Source of the DNA: a virus
Lineage: Duplodnaviria; Caudoviricetes
Strand: one strand, 5' to 3'
Length of the DNA: 36,300 bases
Virus record (IMG/VR): IMGVR_UViG_3300002092_000104
Location: 1-36,300 of that record
Both the position numbers and the translations under genes were made by a program. The notes beneath the pieces are model-generated. The model saw only the letters and a list, made by a program, of their open reading frames with translations. It was not told the origin of the DNA and ran no database searches. Position 1 is the stretch's first letter. Each line of letters starts with the position of its first letter. Shown here piece after piece: positions 3,245 through 35,558 of this stretch.

Positions 3245-3856
3245 ATGGACGCTAAAAAAATGAATGTAGAATCGTTAAAAGAATATCCAAACAATGCGCG
3301 ACGCGGTAACGTTTCGTTGCTTGTTGAATCTTTAAAAGTTAATGGACAATATCGACCAATAGTAGTTCAAAAATCAACTAATTACGTGCTTGCAGGTAAT
3401 CACTTATTGCGAGCGGCTAAACAAATTGGTTGGGAAGAAATTGACACAGTAATTATTGATTGCGACGATCAAGCGGCGTTAAAAATTGTTTTAGTAGATA
3501 ATCGCTCTAATGATTTGGGCGAATATAACGATGATTATTTAACGGGATTATTAAAAGATTTAGAAAACTTTAGTGGTACGGGATATAACCAATCAGATAT
3601 AGAAGAATTAGAAAAACTTAGTGGCGTAGAACAAGAAGAACGTCCGGATATTGAATTTTCGTTAGCGTTACGAGAAGAAAATAATTACGTAATTTTAGTT
3701 TTTGATAACGCGTTAGATTGGCAATCAGCAATAACAACTTTTGATCTTAAAACTGTTAAAGCGTGGGACTCAAGAGCAGGTTTTTCACGTGCCGGAATAG
3801 GGCGCGTAATTGCGGGGACGCCAATTCTTGATCGGTTGAATAATGTTAATAGTTAG
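3245..3856 (+). CDS. ParB/Srx-like N-terminal domain protein
   Basis: YPNNAR…SL…GQYRPIVV…VLAGNH…AA..IGW…LVDNR motifs. Confidence 0.88.
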   Translation: MDAKKMNVESLKEYPNNARRGNVSLLVESLKVNGQYRPIVVQKSTNYVLAGNHLLRAAKQIGWEEIDTVIIDCDDQAALKIVLVDNRSNDLGEYNDDYLTGLLKDLENFSGTGYNQSDIEELEKLSGVEQEERPDIEFSLALREENNYVILVFDNALDWQSAITTFDLKTVKAWDSRAGFSRAGIGRVIAGTPILDRLNNVNS

Positions 3857-4577
3857 TCCCTCATATAAGCGCGCGGATGATGTAAAAATTCGTAACTGGT
3901 TTTTTGATATTACTCTTGCCGTTCACGAATTCGAAGCGGAAGAATATAAAGAAAAACAAGGCGGCAATTTAATGATATTGCCTGACTTTACTCGCGGAAA
4001 TATGGCTAAAGTTCGCCAATACATCTTGGATCAAGCGGGCAAAGATGAATGGGTAGTTATGATGGATGACGATGTGGAAGAATTTGGATATTTTGGTAAG
4101 GCGACAAACGAAGATAATTGGATGCCTTACGATAGGGATCAGTTTGTAGAATTCTTAGATCGTGGCTGCTTTATGGCAGAAGAAATAGGAACAAATTTAT
4201 GGGGCGTGAACGTTTCATTCGATCCGCGCTTTTATCGGGAATACACACCCTTGGCGTTTAGTTCGCCGGTACTTGGGACTTTTTGCGTACAAAAGAAAAC
4301 CGAAGGTATTGATTACGATATGAGATTAGGGCTTAAAGAAGATTACGATATATTTCTTCAACACTTACATAAGTTTCATAAGGTATTGCGTATTAACCGT
4401 AACTATTATAAAGCGGCTCACTTAACTGTAAAAGGTGGGTGCGGCGTATATAGAAATATGGCGGAAGAAAAGAAACAAGCAGAAATCTTTACTAAAAAAT
4501 GGGGATCAAAGGTTATTAAATGGGCGCCGGAGAGATCAACAAATCCAAGACTTTATCCGCCAATACCGGGCGTTTAA
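3843..4577 (+). CDS. GT-A fold glycosyltransferase-like protein (GREB1-like / TET-associated family)
   Basis: SPSYKR N-terminal motif, R..I…VMMDDD (DxD), KEDYD..L, GG near the C-terminus; adjacent to ParB and terminase. Confidence 0.75.
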   Translation: MLIVSPSYKRADDVKIRNWFFDITLAVHEFEAEEYKEKQGGNLMILPDFTRGNMAKVRQYILDQAGKDEWVVMMDDDVEEFGYFGKATNEDNWMPYDRDQFVEFLDRGCFMAEEIGTNLWGVNVSFDPRFYREYTPLAFSSPVLGTFCVQKKTEGIDYDMRLGLKEDYDIFLQHLHKFHKVLRINRNYYKAAHLTVKGGCGVYRNMAEEKKQAEIFTKKWGSKVIKWAPERSTNPRLYPPIPGV

Positions 4578-11301: not shown

Positions 11302-12396
11302 ATGAGCGCAACTTTTTACGATAATCCACAATTTACCGATTCGCCTTATGGATTACTTTTACAACAAACAATTACATCTTCCGGATCGGTAACGATCCCT
11401 AGCAATATAACTCGCGTATGGGCTATTGCTATTGGCGGCGGTGGCGGCGGTGGTTCAACCGTTGCTGGCGGAATACCCGGTGGCGGTGGCGGTGGCGGTG
11501 GTTTTTCAATGGGATGGACTTTTCCTGCAAATACTTGCACTATTGGCGCTGGTAAAATTGGTTCTATTGCCGCAGTTAATCAAACCCAACCATTAGGCTC
11601 AACGTCTTATGGAGTAGTAGTTGCTGGCGGCGGTGGGGCGGGCGGTAATAACAACGGTACTGGTGGCTCAGGGGAACTTGGTGGTGGTCAGGGTGGGTCA
11701 TCGGGACAAAATATTGGTGGAACCTCACAAGCAAGTTTTACAGGTGCGCCAGCGGGCGTAGGTGCGACTGTTGGCGCTCTCGCGAGTAACGCCGTAGTAG
11801 GTTCTTCGGGATGGGGTTCTGCAGGAAACGCAGTTGGTGGTTCAGGAATTTCAGGTGGCGGCGCGGCTAGTGTGGCGGCGGTTGGTGGGGCAACTGGTGG
11901 TTCGGGTTTAATCGGCGGCGGTGGTGCGTCGCCAACAAGCGGTCAAGGCGGAGCAGGTGGTAATGGTGGTAGTGGAAAAGGTGGCGCGGGTGGTACAGGC
12001 GTAAATGCTGGCGGAGTTATTGGCGGCGCGGGTGGCGGCGGGGCGGGATACGTTTCTGCTGGCGGAAGCGCAACTTTAAATACTGCAACAATTACAAATG
12101 TTACGGGATCAGGAACAGTAATAACTTATACTGCTAATAATACTTTTTCAGCCAACCAATACGTTTCAGTATCAAGCGTAAACCCAACCGCTTACAATAT
12201 AGGCGGCGTAATAACAACGGTATCTTCTACACAATTTACACTAGCGGGCGCGACTACTACTGCTTACGTTTCCGGTGGTAGTGCTTCGGTTGCGTTTGCT
12301 GGCAATGGCGGATTAGGTGGTGGCGGCGGTGGTGGAAGTTTTCAAACCATGCAAGGCGGTACGGGTGGCGCAGGTATACTTTATTTATACTACTAA
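11302..12396 (+). CDS. Glycine-rich virion protein, paralog 3
   Basis: FTDSPYGL.LQQTI.SSGSVTIPS; ends GGAGILYLYY. Confidence 0.8.
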   Translation: MSATFYDNPQFTDSPYGLLLQQTITSSGSVTIPSNITRVWAIAIGGGGGGGSTVAGGIPGGGGGGGGFSMGWTFPANTCTIGAGKIGSIAAVNQTQPLGSTSYGVVVAGGGGAGGNNNGTGGSGELGGGQGGSSGQNIGGTSQASFTGAPAGVGATVGALASNAVVGSSGWGSAGNAVGGSGISGGGAASVAAVGGATGGSGLIGGGGASPTSGQGGAGGNGGSGKGGAGGTGVNAGGVIGGAGGGGAGYVSAGGSATLNTATITNVTGSGTVITYTANNTFSANQYVSVSSVNPTAYNIGGVITTVSSTQFTLAGATTTAYVSGGSASVAFAGNGGLGGGGGGGSFQTMQGGTGGAGILYLYY

Positions 12397-12405
12397 GGGG
12401 ACTAT

Positions 12406-13521
12406 ATGAGTATAAGCATACAATCTAATTCTTCATTCACCGATACCCCTTATGGGCTTAAATTACAACAAACGATTGCGTCAAGCGGATCAGTAACGAT
12501 TCCATCAGGGACACAAAGAGTTTATGCAGTTTGTATTGGCGGTGGCGGTGGCGGCGGCTCAAGTTCAACAATGGCTGGCGGCGGCGGCGCGGGCGGGTTT
12601 TCTGCTGGGTGGACTTTTGCCGTTAATACTTGCACCGTTGGAACTGGCGGCGCAGGTGGCATAAATCAATCGTTTGGTTCAACTGGTATTTCAACGGTTT
12701 ATGGAATGGTAGTTGGCGGCGGTGGTGGGGGTGGAATTGGAACAACATCTTCAACTTTATTGGCTTCATATGGAGCAGGTGGCGGTGGTGGTGGATCTTC
12801 TTCTACAACTGGACTTGTTGGCGGCGTAAGTTATACGGGCGCGCTTGCTGGAAGCGCGGGTTCCGGATTAGGTTACGGCGGCGGCGGCGGGAGCGCAAGC
12901 ACAACCCTTGCAGTTGGCGGCGTGGGTGCAGACGGAGTTTCGGGCGGCGGTGGTGGGGGTAACTCAAGCGCTACAACAACTGGAGTTGCGGCTGGCGCTG
13001 GTGGTAGTGGATTAATTGGTGGTGGCGGTGGTTCGGGAAATACATTAGGAAACGCTAGCACTTTTACTGGTGGTAACGGCGGGGCAGGGTTAGGTGGAGC
13101 GGGCGGAACTGCTTCTAGCGTTGCTGGTGTGCCAACTTCGGTAACGATTACTAACGCAGTTGGATCAGGATCAGTAATAACTTACACGGCAACAAATAGT
13201 TATACCGCAGGACAAATAGTTACTATTTTTGGAGTTTTAGGATTTACCACTGCTAATTTAGGCGGTGTAACGATTGCTTCTGCTTCATCTACTCAATTTA
13301 CTGTAAATAGCACGGCTACTGGAACATATACTTCGGGCGGAACTGCAAATATATATTCTTTAAGCGGTGGTGGTGGTGGAGCGGGATATATTTCAGCAGG
13401 ATCTAATGCTTCGGGTAATAACGGTGGAGCGGGCGGCAACGGCGGTGGTGGTGGTGGTGCGGGAAATAACTATGGAACTGGCGGCGCGGGCGGCGCTGGC
13501 ATACTGTATCTTTACTATTAA
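12406..13521 (+). CDS. Glycine-rich virion protein, paralog 4
   Basis: FTDTPYGL.LQQTI.SSGSVTIPS; ends GGAGILYLYY. Confidence 0.8.
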   Translation: MSISIQSNSSFTDTPYGLKLQQTIASSGSVTIPSGTQRVYAVCIGGGGGGGSSSTMAGGGGAGGFSAGWTFAVNTCTVGTGGAGGINQSFGSTGISTVYGMVVGGGGGGGIGTTSSTLLASYGAGGGGGGSSSTTGLVGGVSYTGALAGSAGSGLGYGGGGGSASTTLAVGGVGADGVSGGGGGGNSSATTTGVAAGAGGSGLIGGGGGSGNTLGNASTFTGGNGGAGLGGAGGTASSVAGVPTSVTITNAVGSGSVITYTATNSYTAGQIVTIFGVLGFTTANLGGVTIASASSTQFTVNSTATGTYTSGGTANIYSLSGGGGGAGYISAGSNASGNNGGAGGNGGGGGGAGNNYGTGGAGGAGILYLYY

Positions 13522-13732: not shown

Positions 13733-15550
13733 ATGGGTTTGTTAGATAATCTTGCCAAAAAAGTGGCGGAAGAAATAACTAAAGCACCAAAACTCCCTGC
13801 TGGAACAGTAACAATGACCGAAACAGAAATGCGTAACGGTTTAATGTATCAACAACAATACGGGACTACCGAGCCTTTATTAAGAGATCAAGTTTTGCCA
13901 TCCGTACCTTTCGGACCGGGAAGTCCATTATTGCCCGGAGCGATTAACCCAGTTGGAGATCGTGGACGACCTGACCCACGCCGTTATGAATATCAGGTAG
14001 CACAAAATATAAATATTACTGCAACCAAGTTAGTGCCTTTTGAAACATTGAGAGCGGCGGCTGATCAGGTTGATATTGTTCGTAGATGTATTGAAGTTTT
14101 AAAAAATAAAATGATTGGTTTGGATTGGGATATTACCCTTTCAGATCAAGCGGCGGAAAGAATTACTTCGGAAACAGGCGGCGATCATCTTAGAGCGATG
14201 GAGAAGGCGCGGGATAAGTTCACGCCTGAGATTGCTCGCTTGCGCGCATTTTGGGAAACTCCGGATAAATCAAATGGTTTAACTTTTTCCGATTGGCTAA
14301 TGATTTCGTTAGAAGAAATTTTAGTGTTAGACGCGTGGTCAGTATGGCCTCAAACCGCGATTAATAAAGAACTTTACGGATTTCAAATCCTAGACGGATC
14401 AACAATTAAACCATTATTAGATGATCGCGGTATGCGTCCACAATCACCGTTTCCTGCTTATCAACAGATTCTTTACGGATTCCCTAGAAGCGAATTCAGC
14501 GCGACAAGAGAAGATGAATCGGCAGATGGAGAGTTTAGTGCTGACGAACTTTCTTATATGGTGCGTAATCGACGTACGTTTAGCGTTTATGGTTATTCGC
14601 CAGTAGAACGTTGCTTACCGCTAGCGGATCTATATTTAAAGCGTCAAGCGTGGCTTCGCGCGGAATATACCGATGGCGTTATGCCGGAAATGATTATTGA
14701 ATCGGACGCTACGTTTGGAAATAACCCTGAGTTATTGCGCGCGTATGAAAATATCCTAAATGATGATCTTTCAGGACAGACAGAACAACGCGTACGCGCG
14801 AAGTTAATGCCAGCAGGTTTAACCGTAAAGCAATTTGAAGGTTACGGGGAACGATTTAAAGATGTATTAGATGATTACTTAGTCACATCTATTTGTGGAC
14901 ATTTTGGAATTATGCCAACCGAAATTGGATTTACTCCTAAGTCGGGGTTAGGCGGCAAGGGACATCAGGATGGAGAAGCCCAAAGCGCAGAATTAATTGG
15001 TTTAATGCCGTTGGCTAATTGGATTTCAAAGATGATCACAAACCTTTCATATACATATTTAAATATGCCACGCGAACTAGAATTCGCTTTAATGCCATCT
15101 TCTCAAAGCGATACTAAAGAAACTGCTGAAAGAGATGACGTTCAAACTCGCGGGGGACGTAAGACAATTAATGAATCACGCGCGGATCTAGGATTACCTT
15201 TATTGGATACTCCTGAGGCTGATATGCCAATATTGGTAGCGGGATCTTCCGTATTCTTGTTTACTCCGGATGGTTTGGTTTCAGCAGGTGTGCCTGATCC
15301 TGTTACTGATCCGCTCGCAACTGATACTCCTGATACTCCAGCCAAAACCCCTGATACTCCAACCGAAACTCCGACTAAAGCGGAGAAGCAAGAGTTGGGG
15401 AGATTTGAAAGATGGATCGAAAAGGGAGTCAGAAATCGGACGTTTAAATTTTATAATGTAGATCCGATAGTAGGCGAAGCGTTGAATAGGTGTTTAGAAG
15501 ATGGGGATATAGACACGGCGCGTAACCTAATTTCTGCCTATATATCGTGA
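13733..15550 (+). CDS. Portal protein
   Basis: LDGSTIKP, YGYSPVE, G.MP, ICGHFGI.P.EIG, TINE.RA.LGLP portal motifs; AGGAG SD. Confidence 0.92.
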   Translation: MGLLDNLAKKVAEEITKAPKLPAGTVTMTETEMRNGLMYQQQYGTTEPLLRDQVLPSVPFGPGSPLLPGAINPVGDRGRPDPRRYEYQVAQNINITATKLVPFETLRAAADQVDIVRRCIEVLKNKMIGLDWDITLSDQAAERITSETGGDHLRAMEKARDKFTPEIARLRAFWETPDKSNGLTFSDWLMISLEEILVLDAWSVWPQTAINKELYGFQILDGSTIKPLLDDRGMRPQSPFPAYQQILYGFPRSEFSATREDESADGEFSADELSYMVRNRRTFSVYGYSPVERCLPLADLYLKRQAWLRAEYTDGVMPEMIIESDATFGNNPELLRAYENILNDDLSGQTEQRVRAKLMPAGLTVKQFEGYGERFKDVLDDYLVTSICGHFGIMPTEIGFTPKSGLGGKGHQDGEAQSAELIGLMPLANWISKMITNLSYTYLNMPRELEFALMPSSQSDTKETAERDDVQTRGGRKTINESRADLGLPLLDTPEADMPILVAGSSVFLFTPDGLVSAGVPDPVTDPLATDTPDTPAKTPDTPTETPTKAEKQELGRFERWIEKGVRNRTFKFYNVDPIVGEALNRCLEDGDIDTARNLISAYIS

Positions 15551-18090
15551 AAGTTTGGGCGGCAAAAGAGATCAAGGGACGGATCTCAGCCCAAAATGCG
15601 GTTAAAATTCGCGCAGTAATTAAAACTTCTTTTAATGCGCGCCAAATTGTTGAAGATTATTTAGGGTCTAACCCCGATAAAACCGATAACGAAACGGCAG
15701 ACAGAGTAAGGGCAAGATCGTGGGTAATGGTTCACGTTAGAACCGATCCCAAACCTCTAGAAAAGGCGATTAACCGAGTATTAGCCGAAGGTTGGGCTAC
15801 GGGTAATAAAGCGGCGCGATCGATGATTAAAACGGCGGTAAATAAAGCGTCGGTTAGTTCAATCGCGTTGGATCCGACGGCTGACGTTTGGGCTGGATGG
15901 ACGCCCGGCGATGAAGCGGTTGCGTTATTGGTTGATCCGCCAAGCGGATTAAAAACTTTAATAGATAATTCTCAGAGTACGGCGCGAAGTGCGTTAAGCA
16001 CAAAATACGACCAAGTAGGCACGGCGTTAGCGACAGGGTTTAGGTCGGGCGAATCACTAGCGAAAATGACCGAGCGAGTAGCGGGCGTTATTGACGATCC
16101 ATCTCAGGCTTTGACGATTGCTACGACAGAGATGAGTAGAGCAACCAATCAATCTGCGATGAATTCGTATCAAAACGCGGGTTTAGGGTCGGTACAATGG
16201 TTTGGGATAGATCCTTGCCCTATATGCGCAGAAAACGATGGCGAAATTGTAGCCCTTGGCGATGATTTCCCTAGTGGCGATTCAGAACCACCAGCGCACC
16301 CAAATTGCTTATGTACGATTTTGCCAGTAATCGACGAAATGGCTTATCGGGACGTTACGGATCAAATCGATCAAGCGGCTAACGACGCGTTTAATTTTGC
16401 TCAAGCCCGCGAAGGTGTATTAACAGATTTAGTTATGGGATTGGCTGACGCGACAAATGCTACGCCAAACGGAATGGATTACCGCTTAAAACAAGTGGGT
16501 TCAATATCTCGCAAAATTGCGGATGAAATTAAAACGGGAGCGGCTAGATCACCCGAAAGCGCGGCTCATAAAATGGCGGATCTTAACCGTTATACCTTGG
16601 TTTGGGACAATAAAAATTACGTCCAAGGGGTTAAGGATTCGTTAGATTCTTTAATCCAAAAGGGCTACGAAACACGCGTTAAAAACTATTGGGAACGCGA
16701 AGATTATCGCGGCATTAACGTAGCGGTAAAAGACCGAAGCGGAAAAGAATTTGAAGTTCAATTCCATACTACCGAATCAGTAACGGTCAAAGAAGAACTT
16801 CATAAACTTTACGAAGAATATCGCGTAGAAAAAAATGACGCTAAACGCTGGAATTTGTGGAATAAGATGACCAAATTGGCAGGAAAAATCCCTGATCCGA
16901 AAGATTATCAAGATCTGCTTAAAATAGGCGATTTAAAACAAGTTCGATTTACCGATTCAATGGGTAACGTGCGCGGGACGACATCATCGTTTTCTAAATG
17001 GTATAACGTTAGAGATACTGCGCCTAAAAAGGTTGCCGAACAAGTGTTTAAGCCTATTGAACCTATGCCTGTGGTTAATGAACCTATTAAACCTATGGAT
17101 GTTATGTTTTCAGATAAGCGAAACGCGGAAATTAAAGCCCAAATAGAAGACATCAAAGGTAAATGGGTTATATCTGAAAAGGATCTTTTAAAAGAAGTTA
17201 AAAATAGTAATTCTGCTATGTATGCTACGGTTAAGAAATACTACGAAGATTTTCACAAAGATTTACCATTTAAAGATAGAAAAATTGCCGCAGAAGCCGA
17301 TCTTACTCGATTAATTTATTATATAGAGAATAATAATAGTTACGAAGATTTTAAATCTATCCTTGCTCCCGATTCTATTATTAATCCAGCAAGAATTTCA
17401 GAATTTAAGCAAGCGGAAATTGTTGCTAAAGAAAAAATTACGGAAGCGTTAAAGAATGGAAACGTAACCATAGCGATTAAAAAAGATGATTTATTCAAAG
17501 TGTTTGAAGATGGTCGCTTTAAGAATCAATTTGAAATACAAAAATCAAACGGATATTACGATCCCGAAATGAGATCAATAAGCGAAAAAACGGTACAAGA
17601 AGTGCCAGTAAATATTGATCCGGCAGAGCGTCCGATTTATGGATTTATTAGTACTGGGGAAGAAATCAAAACCACCGTACCCGACGAAAGCGCAATGAGC
17701 GGTTTGGCTAGAATTTGGGACAATAAACTTAGCCTTAATAGCGAAGCGGTTAGTCAGTATGGGGATATTCGCCTAGTTTTAAAACAGGACGTAAAAGATC
17801 GCACAACAGCGACCATTGGCGATTCACTTTATTCAGGAGTTATCGCGGATAAGGTAACGGCAGAAACTCCCGATTTATTAAATATGGGTTTTTACTATAA
17901 GGGTATTTCAGTAAACGGCATTTATCCGTCTATGAGTTATTTAGAAGCGCAGATTACTGGCGGAGTAAAGGTCGGAGATATTGCCGCGATCTATGCCCCT
18001 CAAAAAGACATTCCAAATTTAGTTGCTAAACTAAAAGAGTTAAATTTAAATATTCCGATTGTGCCTAGAAAATGGGGGATAGATTGGTAA
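15547..18090 (+). CDS. MuF (SPP1 gp7-like) minor head protein fused to RelA/SpoT-like synthetase and DUF3626-like domains
   Basis: MuF IATTE..RA…W….CPIC…PPAHPNC.C (aa ~150-262); RLK…S…K, D..RYT, KNYW, YRGIN, FEVQFHT (aa ~275-458); FKNQFE, ERPIYG, QYG, RTT.T.GDS, YLEAQI.GG (aa ~638-820). Confidence 0.85.
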   Translation: MKVWAAKEIKGRISAQNAVKIRAVIKTSFNARQIVEDYLGSNPDKTDNETADRVRARSWVMVHVRTDPKPLEKAINRVLAEGWATGNKAARSMIKTAVNKASVSSIALDPTADVWAGWTPGDEAVALLVDPPSGLKTLIDNSQSTARSALSTKYDQVGTALATGFRSGESLAKMTERVAGVIDDPSQALTIATTEMSRATNQSAMNSYQNAGLGSVQWFGIDPCPICAENDGEIVALGDDFPSGDSEPPAHPNCLCTILPVIDEMAYRDVTDQIDQAANDAFNFAQAREGVLTDLVMGLADATNATPNGMDYRLKQVGSISRKIADEIKTGAARSPESAAHKMADLNRYTLVWDNKNYVQGVKDSLDSLIQKGYETRVKNYWEREDYRGINVAVKDRSGKEFEVQFHTTESVTVKEELHKLYEEYRVEKNDAKRWNLWNKMTKLAGKIPDPKDYQDLLKIGDLKQVRFTDSMGNVRGTTSSFSKWYNVRDTAPKKVAEQVFKPIEPMPVVNEPIKPMDVMFSDKRNAEIKAQIEDIKGKWVISEKDLLKEVKNSNSAMYATVKKYYEDFHKDLPFKDRKIAAEADLTRLIYYIENNNSYEDFKSILAPDSIINPARISEFKQAEIVAKEKITEALKNGNVTIAIKKDDLFKVFEDGRFKNQFEIQKSNGYYDPEMRSISEKTVQEVPVNIDPAERPIYGFISTGEEIKTTVPDESAMSGLARIWDNKLSLNSEAVSQYGDIRLVLKQDVKDRTTATIGDSLYSGVIADKVTAETPDLLNMGFYYKGISVNGIYPSMSYLEAQITGGVKVGDIAAIYAPQKDIPNLVAKLKELNLNIPIVPRKWGIDW

Positions 18091-18266
18091 AAGGAACCGT
18101 TTTATATATAGCAGAAGATGGATCAGAGATAATTTTTGATCGATTAGACGGCAAAGAACCTTATGCTCACGTTAGATTTCCCGATGGGCGTGAATTTGAA
18201 TCTAATAAACTTGGTTCAATTTTGGCTCGCGGCTATTGGCAACCCGCGCCTGAATGGAATAAATAA
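18072..18266 (+). CDS. Small protein coupled to MuF, candidate immunity protein
   Basis: 64 aa, overlaps the MuF stop; function inferred from position only. Confidence 0.55.
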   Translation: MGDRLVKGTVLYIAEDGSEIIFDRLDGKEPYAHVRFPDGREFESNKLGSILARGYWQPAPEWNK

Positions 18267-18511
18267 TGACCAAAGATCGATGGTTTTATAAAACAGATGA
18301 TCGAAACGACATTCTTGCTATATATCGGTTAAACATTAACGATGATATTAAAAAGGTTACGGAATTGGTGTGGTTGGACAACGCGTGGATAGTAACCGAT
18401 AATTTGGTACAGATGATTACAGGCGGAGAATTCTATTTAGACGAAGTAACGCGGGAAACCGTTCAACACTTTACTCCTTATGTAGATACAAACGAATATA
18501 AATCAGAATAG
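18266..18511 (+). CDS. Small acidic protein, candidate immunity for the alarmone synthetase domain
   Basis: 81 aa; Y…R…E..W….W…G…DEVT.E pattern recalls the small proteins following Tas1/Apk2-type toxins; TAATG coupling. Confidence 0.6.
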   Translation: MTKDRWFYKTDDRNDILAIYRLNINDDIKKVTELVWLDNAWIVTDNLVQMITGGEFYLDEVTRETVQHFTPYVDTNEYKSE

Positions 18512-18520
18512 GAAAATAAA

Positions 18521-18805
18521 ATGGCATTAGTCCACTTAAATAGCACCGCCGGAACAACGGCAACAATGATTTGCCAAGTTGAAACAGGATTATCGCGCAA
18601 CGTCGCAGTTCAAATTCAAAACGGGGATAGTGCGTCGATTTGGGTTGGCGATTCAACTATTACAACATCGGGTGTAACTAAGGGACATTTAATAACTGCT
18701 GGAACAACATTTCAACTTTGGTGTAATTCGGGAGATAAAATTTACGGCATTTCTGCGGCTGGTACTGCGGCTGGTGCAGTTGTAATTACCTATTCAGGAA
18801 ACTAA
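18521..18805 (+). CDS. Small beta-sandwich virion protein, possible head decoration
   Basis: VQIQN….IWVG…TTSG..G…GDKIYGI pattern; located in the head module. Confidence 0.55.
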   Translation: MALVHLNSTAGTTATMICQVETGLSRNVAVQIQNGDSASIWVGDSTITTSGVTKGHLITAGTTFQLWCNSGDKIYGISAAGTAAGAVVITYSGN

Positions 18806-34301: not shown

Positions 34302-34539
34302 GGCTTTAAAAGAGTTGTCGGAAAATAACGTTAAAGAAAAACACGTGGGATGTAAGTTATATCCGTTATATGTAGAAAATACCGAAGAATCAAAAATGAT
34401 CCTAGAAATATTAGATAATAAAGAAATCTCAGCCGTTAAATTGGCAAAGGTATTAAAAGATAATGGGATTAAAATAAGCGTCGATTCGTTACGTCGCCAT
34501 CGAAATCGTAAAGGCGGGGTGGGTTGCCAATGTCCTTAA
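34279..34539 (+). CDS. Small HTH-like protein with a Cys/His cluster (start ATG 34279 or TTG 34300)
   Basis: GC…ISA.KLA.VL…G..IS..SLRRHR….C.C. Confidence 0.65.
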   Translation: MAEQGLFLALKELSENNVKEKHVGCKLYPLYVENTEESKMILEILDNKEISAVKLAKVLKDNGIKISVDSLRRHRNRKGGVGCQCP

Positions 34540-35558
34540 AAGATGATTTAGAAGAATTAAAAAAAGAAGTAGATCCGCAGATTGCGGAATTACGAAATGC
34601 GTTATTAAATACGCAAAAACAATTAGCAAAAGCCAAGATTCGTAACGATGAATTGGTAACGGCAACTCATCGCGGGGCTTATGAGGCAATGTTGGCGTTA
34701 GGATCAATACCGCCAGTTCCGGCACCGGCTAAAGATCTTAGAAAAGCAAAAGCCGAAGTTGCGTTAATTCATTCGACGGATTGGCAAGGCGCAAAAGTGA
34801 CTACAAGTTATAATTCAGAAGTAATGCGACAACGTGTTTTACAATTCGCAGATAAAATTATTCATTTAACCGATCTTCAAAGAAAACATCATCCCGTTAA
34901 AGATTGCGTGGTTATGTTTGGCGGAGATATGGTCGAAGGTTTATTTAATTACCCAGCGCAGTTATGGCAAATTGACGCTTCATTATTTGGACAATTTACT
35001 ACGGTGTCTCGTTTGTGTGTAGATTTTATTCGCGTTATGTTGGCTAATTTTGAAAACGTTACAGTAGTTGCTGAATGGGGTAACCACGGAAGAATTGCGG
35101 GCAAGCGAGCAGAAGTGCCAAAAAGCGATAACGTGGATCGAATGGTTTATGAAATGTCGCGCCAAATTCTTGCGGGCGAAAAAAGATTAACGTGGGAAGA
35201 TTGTCCGGAAGATATTCAGGAAGTAGCGGTGGGAAATTATCGCGCTTTATTAATGCACGGCGACGAATTGGGAAGATCAGGGTTTGCTAGTCCGGCGGCT
35301 TGGATTGCGGGTGGTAACCGTTGGAAGGCTGGCGCGCACGATTATGACTTTATGGATATTTATCTAGGTCATTACCATCGCCACGCGCAAGAACCGATTC
35401 AGAAAAACTTTAATATATATTGGACGGGATCAACTGAGTCGGATAATCGTTATGCGCGGGATTCTATGGCGGCTAGCGGGTTGCCTAGTCAGCGTCTCCA
35501 CTTTGTAGATCCGATCAAGGGGCGGGTTACTGCCCAGTATCAAGTGTGGCTGGACTAA
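34530..35558 (+). CDS. Calcineurin-like metallophosphoesterase with N-terminal coiled coil
   Basis: TDWQ, GGD..EG, GNHG, HGD, GHYH motifs. Confidence 0.85.
   Translation: MSLKDDLEELKKEVDPQIAELRNALLNTQKQLAKAKIRNDELVTATHRGAYEAMLALGSIPPVPAPAKDLRKAKAEVALIHSTDWQGAKVTTSYNSEVMRQRVLQFADKIIHLTDLQRKHHPVKDCVVMFGGDMVEGLFNYPAQLWQIDASLFGQFTTVSRLCVDFIRVMLANFENVTVVAEWGNHGRIAGKRAEVPKSDNVDRMVYEMSRQILAGEKRLTWEDCPEDIQEVAVGNYRALLMHGDELGRSGFASPAAWIAGGNRWKAGAHDYDFMDIYLGHYHRHAQEPIQKNFNIYWTGSTESDNRYARDSMAASGLPSQRLHFVDPIKGRVTAQYQVWLD

Follow-up and report, generated by a model that had tools for sequence, protein, structure and literature searches.

MuF proteins are low-copy, portal-linked phage head proteins (PMC10083569; PMC5576092), and RelA/SpoT and ADP-ribosyltransferase (ART) domains have already been named among the domains fused to MuF (PMC5512222; PMC9503650). 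Both MuF-Apk2 proteins accompanied by immunity genes and MuF-ART fusions are in print already, as are polyvalent head proteins, and the benefit of MuF-fused toxins to the phage is stated as open (PMC10083569; PMC5576092). We analysed a MuF gene carried by a tailed phage, IMG/VR record IMGVR_UViG_3300002092_000104, a 36.3-kb virus contig that is 88% complete (positions 1 to 36,300, called the window below). Its product of 847 amino acids (aa) is likely to carry two enzyme domains on one MuF head protein, a small alarmone synthetase and an ART-like domain of the DUF3626 family; two small open reading frames (ORFs) that follow, ORF64 and ORF81, are predicted to block one domain each.

The Apk signature is RYT / GxN / YH, and Apk2 was characterised in Mannheimia, Pasteurella and pneumococcus (PMC12226406); Aph1 is variably present in the Apk2 family (PMC10083569). 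SaEAS, in which D121 (active site), R124, N169, E182 and Q184 have been singled out, makes both (p)ppApp and (p)ppGpp and works at a rate above 100,000 per minute; VpEAS and AaEAS make (p)ppGpp only (PMC12691689). DUF3626 is a domain of SopF (PMC6682159), which is an ART with an Ile-Tyr-Glu (I-Y-E) triad (PMC10333799); SopF modifies protein, and DarT modifies DNA with a catalytic Arg (PMC10333799; PMC9967889). The combination MuF-DUF3626 was given for three proteins, activity unknown, and MCP1 of Lactococcus phage TP901-1 carries that label (PMC5576092 supplement).

Architecture of the locus

The 847-aa gene lies downstream of the portal gene and upstream of the prohead protease gene, and its start overlaps the stop of the portal gene. 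The gene, its parts and the two small genes behind it are as follows.

15547..18090, + strand: 847-aa MuF-synthetase-ART gene, GTG start
15547..16332, + strand: N-terminal region with the MuF (SPP1 gp7-like) domain, aa 1-262, Pfam core at aa 156-258
16369..16956, + strand: putative Apk2/EAS-type small alarmone synthetase domain, aa 275-470
17023..17106, + strand: short Pro-rich linker (28 aa, 6 of them Pro), aa 493-520
17107..17388, + strand: segment of about 95 aa ahead of the ART core, aa 521-614, 34-36% identical in proteins P0002 and P0003
17389..18087, + strand: DUF3626 domain, predicted SopF/DarT-like ART fold, aa 615-847
18072..18266, + strand: ORF64, predicted ART inhibitor, unnamed family with an L-x-R-G-Y-W motif
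18266..18511, + strand: ORF81, 81 aa, predicted synthetase inhibitor in the IapK/Tis1 position, overlapping ORF64

We regard this arrangement, MuF followed by two enzyme domains, as virtually certain. The MuF domain that the original prediction had read from the DNA alone was recovered with PF04233 (aa 156-258, E 2e-10, 41.8 bits for a cut-off of 29.6) and with TIGR01641 (44.4 bits for a cut-off of 39.65). The same prediction had placed a Pro-rich linker between the two domains; a Pro-rich stretch is present, but it is short, and the roughly 100 residues that follow it (aa 521-614) are conserved in the closest relatives. The GC content of 17014-17388 is low (0.32). Compared with the close relative L001, changed codons were more often synonymous than non-synonymous in every part (ART 36:7, synthetase 52:9, ORF64 10:5, ORF81 9:4); ORF64 and ORF81 are therefore real genes.

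The first domain resembles Apk and EAS synthetases

Residues 275-478 matched SaEAS (PDB 8VX3) with E 1.2e-18, the best solved relative, so that the synthetase-type domain first proposed from motifs is not a chance resemblance. The domain also matched the MuF-synthetases of phages from Mannheimia, Pasteurella and S. pneumoniae (E 1e-19 to 1e-14), and PF04607 reached E 9e-4, below cut-off. All four synthetase motifs were found where they had been claimed (R313-L-K315, D345, YRGIN 387-391, EVQFHT 403-408), the key residues being R313, K315, D345, R348-Y-T, G389-x-N391, E403, Q405 and H407. In an alignment read by eye, D121, R124, N169, E182 and Q184 of SaEAS correspond to D345, R348, N391, E403 and Q405. 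The Apk signature reads RYT / GIN / FH here and aligns motif by motif with the Apk2-type phage proteins; the fourth synthetase motif is FH, compared with YH in PMC12226406.

Motifs and match pattern together point to an Apk/EAS-type domain more than to a tRNA-pyrophosphorylating toxSAS of the FaRel2/PhRel type. The domain is very probably an active synthetase, and (p)ppApp is probably among its products.

The second domain is predicted to be an ART related to SopF and DarT

The second enzyme-like domain of the original prediction is real: a search recovered 1635 cluster representatives at E<=0.001, and the domain spans aa ~615-845, slightly wider than first drawn. Taken as a single sequence it matched DUF3626 (PF12294) weakly (E 0.037, 19.1 bits, below the cut-off of 27) and found no match in the PDB. 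Among its aligned homologs, 83 of 90 matched PF12294 at E<=0.01, and several relatives exceeded the cut-off. SopF was found by profile only: the profile of the 90 homologs detected SopF chains, PDB 7DN8 with E 4e-8 and a second chain with E 7e-7.

The AlphaFold2 model of the domain had a predicted local distance difference test score (pLDDT) of 92.4. The fold check proposed at the outset, a Foldseek search, returned an ART fold, with SopF first and DarT next (E 2e-7); DarT made up 8 of the top 10 rows. In VIA-align, SopF (Z 11.9, root-mean-square deviation (rmsd) 3.9, 187 residues aligned) and DarT (Z 11.2, rmsd 3.7, 172 aligned) were tied, and nearly all rows beneath them were further ART-fold proteins. 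The ART fold is thus predicted with confidence. The putative site residues are I642, R676, Y698, Y738, D759, E800 and Q802: in the homolog alignment R676, G739 and Q802 are invariant (90/90), Y698 is present in 89/90, Y738 and E800 in 88/90 and D759 in 88-89/90. E800 lines up with a Glu position that distinguishes chain 7DN8 from chain 7DN9, and the placing of I642 as first triad position rests on a stretch that is not significant by itself. A NAD-using enzyme of the ART fold is, on the model and these columns, a highly probable identity for the domain.

The target of the predicted ART is somewhat more likely to be protein than DNA, since no relative is closer in sequence than SopF. The alternative keeps the same anatomy and assumes a DarT-like enzyme that would ADP-ribosylate host DNA, or the phage's own incoming MuF-bound genome, with ORF64 silencing it during assembly. 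The tie in the fold searches speaks for it. DarT requires R51 and E160 and uses H13, K28, L30 and Y71 (PMC9967889), and I642, R657, K659, R676, Y698 and E800 fall in the DarT register; that register is one of spacing, with no residue-level superposition behind it. The invariant R676 at DarT-like spacing keeps a DNA target alive, and gp7-type MuF proteins bind DNA (PMC10083569). Against this, the sequence profile that finds SopF finds no DarT, and no DarG-type or NADAR eraser gene was present among the ORFs scanned. We consider DNA modification an unlikely alternative, although the best placed of those weighed here.

The ART domain was found in phages in 124 matching stretches of one viral scan. 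Among 159 proteins examined, 31 carried MuF and 6 carried synthetase and ART together, as did the protein of locus L093. The phage Tierra protein gp9, which GenBank names ADP-ribosyltransferase, also carries the domain. Literature searches, which reached few subscription papers, returned no paper on a phage SopF-like ART, on MuF-DUF3626 activity or on the ORF64 family.

Outside phages, the ART domain was observed in bacterial and archaeal genomes (L126-L143), often in very long proteins (Nocardia, Microtetraspora, Patescibacteria); MuF was near the ART in just 3 of 18 such genome loci. The same ART also occurs in further MuF proteins with several cargoes, P0009, P0012 and that of L093, the types including MuF-zeta toxin-ART and MuF-DRAT-like-ART; the L093 protein (L093:1673-5584, 1303 aa) reads 2H phosphoesterase-MuF-synthetase-ART. 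The earlier idea that a MuF protein with several payloads had no precedent was not supported, given these two-cargo proteins and the polyvalent MuF and RelA/SpoT proteins described in PMC5512222.

A swappable block nests one gene pair inside the other

Comparison with relatives showed that part of the locus can be gained or lost as a unit.

17013..18264, + strand: swappable 1,252-nucleotide (nt) block of linker, ART and ORF64, absent from L004/L005

The blastn match to L005 stops at window position 17012 and resumes at 18265, and the junction alignment agrees. Because the DNA of L004 and L005 matches up to 17012 and then again from 18265, linker, ART and ORF64 form one block. These two relatives encode a 492-aa protein of MuF and synthetase, directly followed by an ORF81 homolog, with neither ART nor ORF64. 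A contig from sequencing run X4 lacks 16838-18351 and has 268 letters in its place, and X4 also holds the present sequence unchanged. In L090 and L091 the synthetase is again followed by ORF81, and in L108 and L110 an ART is followed by ORF64 and, kilobases downstream, a synthetase by ORF81. The pairing is nested, ART with ORF64 inside and synthetase with ORF81 outside; the six loci rule out that the partner genes follow the order of the domains. It was also asked whether ORF64 and ORF81 are two copies of one antidote, and they proved unrelated (mutual E 0.45).

Cargo varies among relatives, being synthetase only, ART only or another cargo. In a MuF tree of 15 rows, two synthetase-only and four double forms fell in one supported clade and ART-only forms outside it, a topology compatible with either gain or loss of the block.

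The original proposal of one small partner gene per domain agrees with co-occurrence for both pairs and with a complex model for one of them. For the synthetase, all 15 locus rows with an ORF81 match had a synthetase upstream; the gap was 59-69 nt in the 8 rows where the block is absent, and the other 7 rows are of the present phage type. In its model (pLDDT 82.7) ORF81 folds into a small beta-sheet and two helices. Its Atlas lead scored 0.84, with PF24154 on 11% of that lead's members. Position and co-occurrence predict the role of ORF81, and a block of the synthetase by its product is likely. In two relatives an ORF81-like domain was seen at the N-terminus of a longer ORF (L091:742-1395 and L110:8913-9656), fused in L091 to an XkdF-type prohead protease.

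ORF64 may plug the NAD cleft of the ART

ORF64 had no match in Pfam, PHROG, NCBIfam or the PDB, and its best Atlas score was 0.83 (low recognition). A possible TTG start at 18084, which would give 60 aa, agrees with the starts of homologs. Loci were scanned with a 9-sequence subset of the broad ORF64 alignment, whose diversity was too great for this purpose. The resulting ORF64-led scan found an ART upstream in 21 of 22 loci, the remaining locus lying at a contig start; 13 of the loci were absent from the ART scan, and 12 of these 13 had an ART upstream. ORF64 was absent from all 14 dereplicated synthetase loci without an ART (17 synthetase loci in all). With the wider profile, 49 of 56 matches lay directly behind an ART. 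In the cultured freshwater Actinomycetia phage DSL-LC01 an ART is followed by an ORF64 homolog (E 9e-20), a gene detected by profile although tblastn of ORF64 against cultured phages gave no match.

The complex model proposed as a check gave a score of 0.65 for ART with ORF64, compared with 0.40 for the best of three controls; the mark set for this score is reached by 116 of 157 solved pairs and by 2 of 215 mismatched pairs. The runs share at least 77% of contacts, the pLDDT of the partner is at least 77, and ORF64 has no solved relative from which the model could have copied. The modelled contacts on the ART (aa 643-648, 659-661, 698-699, 736-738 and 759-762) make up the conserved cleft, and Arg53 of the conserved ORF64 motif Arg53-Gly-Tyr-Trp touches Y698 and Y738. 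ORF64 is thus predicted to plug the NAD cleft; the model supports binding, and we consider it likely that ORF64 binds and blocks the ART.

Proposed mechanism and evidence from TP901-1

The explanation that we prefer, at somewhat better than even probability as a whole, is that a MuF-borne synthetase and ART enter the host with the DNA and are silenced in the producing cell by ORF81 and ORF64. Upon late expression ORF81 would silence the synthetase and ORF64 the ART. The fusion would be packaged in few copies linked to the portal and would leave with the DNA into the next host, as its relatives suggest. In the new cell, again by analogy with relatives, the synthetase would convert ATP to (p)ppApp at a rate that would let even a few molecules have an effect, and the ART would transfer ADP-ribose from NAD to a host macromolecule. 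The purpose may be to strike briefly, at entry, at host nucleotide pools and a host target, and so to ease takeover or blunt defence. Delivery of the cargo from the virion is, by analogy, fairly likely.

What looks like a laboratory-ready relative is the MCP1/MCP2 pair of phage TP901-1 (L150:1717-3653, ORF33/ORF34). MCP1 consists of MuF and the same ART (E 6e-36, conserved motifs kept), its C-terminal extension being the DUF3626-type ART, and is followed by the 75-aa gene MCP2. MCP2 is at most a distant relative of ORF64 (E 0.44 to the ORF64 profile and, among 4 sequences, E 3e-6 to an outer ORF64 set selected by hand) and is a possible distant inhibitor. Precipitated phage contained MCP1 of the larger size, a portal mutant had lost MCP1, and Tuc2009 lacks the MCP1 extension (PMC4493119). 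A stop codon affecting the whole of MCP1, and hence MuF too, reduced lysogeny from 7.5e6 to 2.7e2. An MCP2 stop gave scarce particles and lower plating, and the phage was viable (PMC4493119). This result agrees with a modest role as antidote and speaks against lethality: unguarded, the TP901-1 ART would not kill. A bolder reading, which we hold to be improbable, joins these observations to the DNA target discussed above: phage-head ARTs of the SopF/DarT-like kind would form a widespread family and mark DNA at entry, tethered by MuF, their NAD pocket plugged by ORF64, stacked here on a (p)ppApp synthetase, with MCP1/MCP2 as the same pair.

Entry into a new host may not be involved at all. The enzymes could instead act, uninjected, in the producer cell or lysogen, as late toxin-antidote pairs that shift nucleotide pools, abort rivals or arm the host. 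MuF toxins are reported from temperate phages only, injection is itself a hypothesis (PMC5576092; PMC10083569), and the cargo is optional, relatives lacking one or the other domain. The domains are, however, fused to a portal-associated head protein, and the full-length fusion of a relative sediments with the phage; moreover, no integrase was found in the Pfam scan, which covered 34 of the 37 ORFs of at least 90 aa on this 88%-complete record. Action in the producer cell seems to us rather doubtful.

Less probable again is that ORF64 serves as an adaptor for docking or as a regulatory subunit, which would grip the ART and tow further cargo into the head or set ART activity. In 20 of 56 matches ORF64 is the N-terminal part of a longer ORF, which is unusual for a plain antidote; of 12 such ORF64-led ORFs scanned, several carried VIP2-type or DRAT-like ART domains. 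It also lies inside the ART-bearing ORF, behind the ART, in 3 rows (a fourth row being a split fragment); of the 159 proteins, 4 hold it together with the ART, and the small-gene mutant of TP901-1 is viable (PMC4493119). As opposed to this, ORF64 is a stand-alone gene here and in 32 of 56 matches, its modelled contact covers the catalytic cleft, and several fusions then show a Lys-preceded leader motif that may be a cleavage site. That one or both domains are inactive or plain NAD or ATP hydrolases, with the small genes as passengers, is very improbable: the first triad position is Ile instead of His, but SopF is active with an Ile-Tyr-Glu triad (PMC10333799), the catalytic columns are near-invariant, all parts are under purifying selection and the pairing is strict.

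Head-linked chains of cargo genes were observed (L007-L019, L041, L111, L112) in which the ORF64 domain is the N-terminus of the following cargo protein; ORF64-led cargo is of VIP2-type ART, DRAT-like ART and metallopeptidase-like types. Cargo modules of related head-gene clusters open with a short H-x(1-3)-HDQ-x-x-H leader (for example L007:4310-5146, L011:3794-6541, L111:85-930, L112:7010-7843 and other related loci), preceded by Lys in 32 of 32 copies for a background of 5.3%. This leader may be a site of head-protease cleavage or a packaging signal. Another leader type reads Q-x-R-D-x-x-G-R-W/F; the 847-aa protein carries neither.

Besides the ORF64 fusions, several observations weigh against injected cargo with one antidote per domain. 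First, a newly infected cell would not be protected by antidote genes that belong to a late operon, and the MCP2 mutant of TP901-1 forms plaques and lysogenises (6.5e6 compared with 7.5e6; PMC4493119). Second, a strict ORF64 match adjoined the ART in 21 of 52 dereplicated viral ART loci and in 0 of 18 genome loci; L092 and L093, which combine synthetase and ART, and Tierra gp9 had no match to either partner. The ORF64 profile was itself built from ART-led loci, which makes the co-occurrence partly circular. The ORF64 family is likely wider than the strict matches: a set of 20 downstream ORFs, chosen by eye in the 49 rows left over, aligned to the ORF64 profile in hhalign with E 1.5e-5 (probability 80%), controls giving E 0.25-0.27. 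Third, no likeness of ORF81 to IapK or Tis1 reached significance. PF24154 had no match in 7 ORF81 members, the hhalign comparison with 9 IapK-position proteins was not significant (E 0.016, probability 2.8%), nor was the Foldseek match to Tis1 (6OX6_B, rank 10, E 0.87) or that of VIA (Z 4.2, rmsd 4.0, 62 aligned, rank 4); Tis1 was the sole same-sized full-length match near the top of both structure searches. Finally, no Aph1-type hydrolase or HD-domain gene was found in the Pfam scan. Since Aph1 is variable in the family, its absence from the scan does not exclude Apk2 membership.

Genomic context and host

The genes on either side of the MuF gene and its partners are as follows.

13733..15550, + strand: portal gene (Pfam PF04860 E 9e-10; phrog_2662 portal E 1e-56)
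18521..18805, + strand: 94-aa conserved head-module gene, with homologs in L004, L005, L010, L014 and L015
18812..20164, + strand: prohead protease gene (phrog_80 E 5e-6; PF04586 E 0.03)

The 94-aa gene is kept whether either cargo is present or absent. Five sequencing runs hold at least half of the stretch, all labelled freshwater metagenome and four of them possibly its source; no RNA data were among the listed holders.

An actinobacterial host is plausible. Best matches of the terminase, portal and capsid-like proteins were mixed, and no WhiB was found in the Pfam scan of the window ORFs. The single-stranded-DNA-binding protein scored best with PRK07772, an actinobacterial label, below cut-off. 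The four best genome matches of the ART are from Microtetraspora and Nocardia, and an Ntn-hydrolase gene and the ART-ORF64 pair are common to this phage and DSL-LC01. These leads to Actinomycetota are weak.

Elsewhere in the window, the Ntn hydrolase (710-1249) is proteasome-subunit-like (PF00227 E 2e-4) and is shared with DSL-LC01 and Microbacterium phages. A ParB-like gene followed by a TET-associated glycosyltransferase-like gene (3245-4577, PF20691 E 3e-8) is a possible DNA-modification pair. Two paralogous Gly-rich genes (11302-13521; 364 and 371 aa) with the same short end motif lie between terminase and portal and likely encode fibre-like proteins, in an unusual place. A 344-aa ORF (34524-35558) had no Pfam or NCBIfam match at E<=0.01; by eye it has calcineurin-like metallophosphoesterase motifs, and its product could act on nucleotides.

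Comparison with known systems

The analysis gives a predicted function, that of an ART, to MuF-DUF3626, a cargo published as 'activity unknown' (PMC5576092). The only characterised relative found for the DUF3626 ART is a Salmonella effector, yet the family is common in phages. It further provides a candidate inhibitor family, ORF64, modelled as plugging the active site. That ART and inhibitor can be cleanly gained or lost within an existing toxin-antidote pair offers a route from a one-toxin to a polyvalent MuF protein; forms with and without the block coexist in one freshwater run (X4), and the double load recurs (6 of 159 proteins and L093). Existing TP901-1 mutants and the cultured phage DSL-LC01 make the question testable.

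Like the Apk2-IapK/Tis1-Aph1 systems (PMC12226406; PMC10083569), the locus has MuF and an Apk-signature synthetase by the portal, with a small downstream partner gene. Unlike them, it has a second enzyme and its partner nested between synthetase and partner, no Aph1 was found, and ORF81 is not significantly IapK-like by sequence. SaEAS of Streptomyces (8VX3) has matching active-site residues; SaEAS itself is exported through Sec, lacks an immunity gene and makes both alarmones (PMC12691689).

SopF (7DN8/7DN9) shares the Pfam family, the predicted fold and an I-Y-E-type site and is nearest by profile. SopF itself is a type III effector that needs eukaryotic ARF1 and modifies the V-ATPase (PMC6682159; PMC10333799), whereas the present domain is on a phage head protein, is 15-18% identical over the structurally aligned part and has a small predicted inhibitor. 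Its head-gene context and MuF fusion indicate a predicted ART that is not SopF proper. DarT of DarTG (7OMV, 7YK3) ties with SopF in fold and has an invariant Arg and Glu at like spacing, but serves in host defence as a toxin whose antitoxin is an enzyme (PMC9967889). Here the likeness to DarT has no sequence-level match, the DarT Pfam family was found in none of the 90 ART members, and the partner is a predicted binder of 60-64 aa.

Polyvalent proteins (PMC5512222) and MuF-ART fusions (PMC9503650) likewise place several unrelated enzymes on one head-linked polypeptide, and in the present protein two unrelated enzymatic domains share one polypeptide that is predicted to be virion-linked. The hub MPTase domain of polyvalent proteins was not found here in the Pfam scan. 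The ARTs of these papers belong to the HYD2/N4 and Alt/VIP2 families, unlike the DUF3626 domain; 'DUF3626' and 'SopF' are absent from the main text of PMC5512222, and 'DUF36' and 'SopF' from the searched text and supplement of PMC9503650.

The Bxa-Bsi-BAH system of Bacteroides also combines a MuF-fused ART with a small binding immunity protein, but it has one toxin and two antidotes (PMC11699363), whereas the present locus has two putative toxins with one predicted antidote each. TP901-1 MCP1/MCP2 (PMC4493119; PMC5576092) has MuF, the same ART family and a 75-aa gene; unlike the present protein, it carries the ART without a synthetase.

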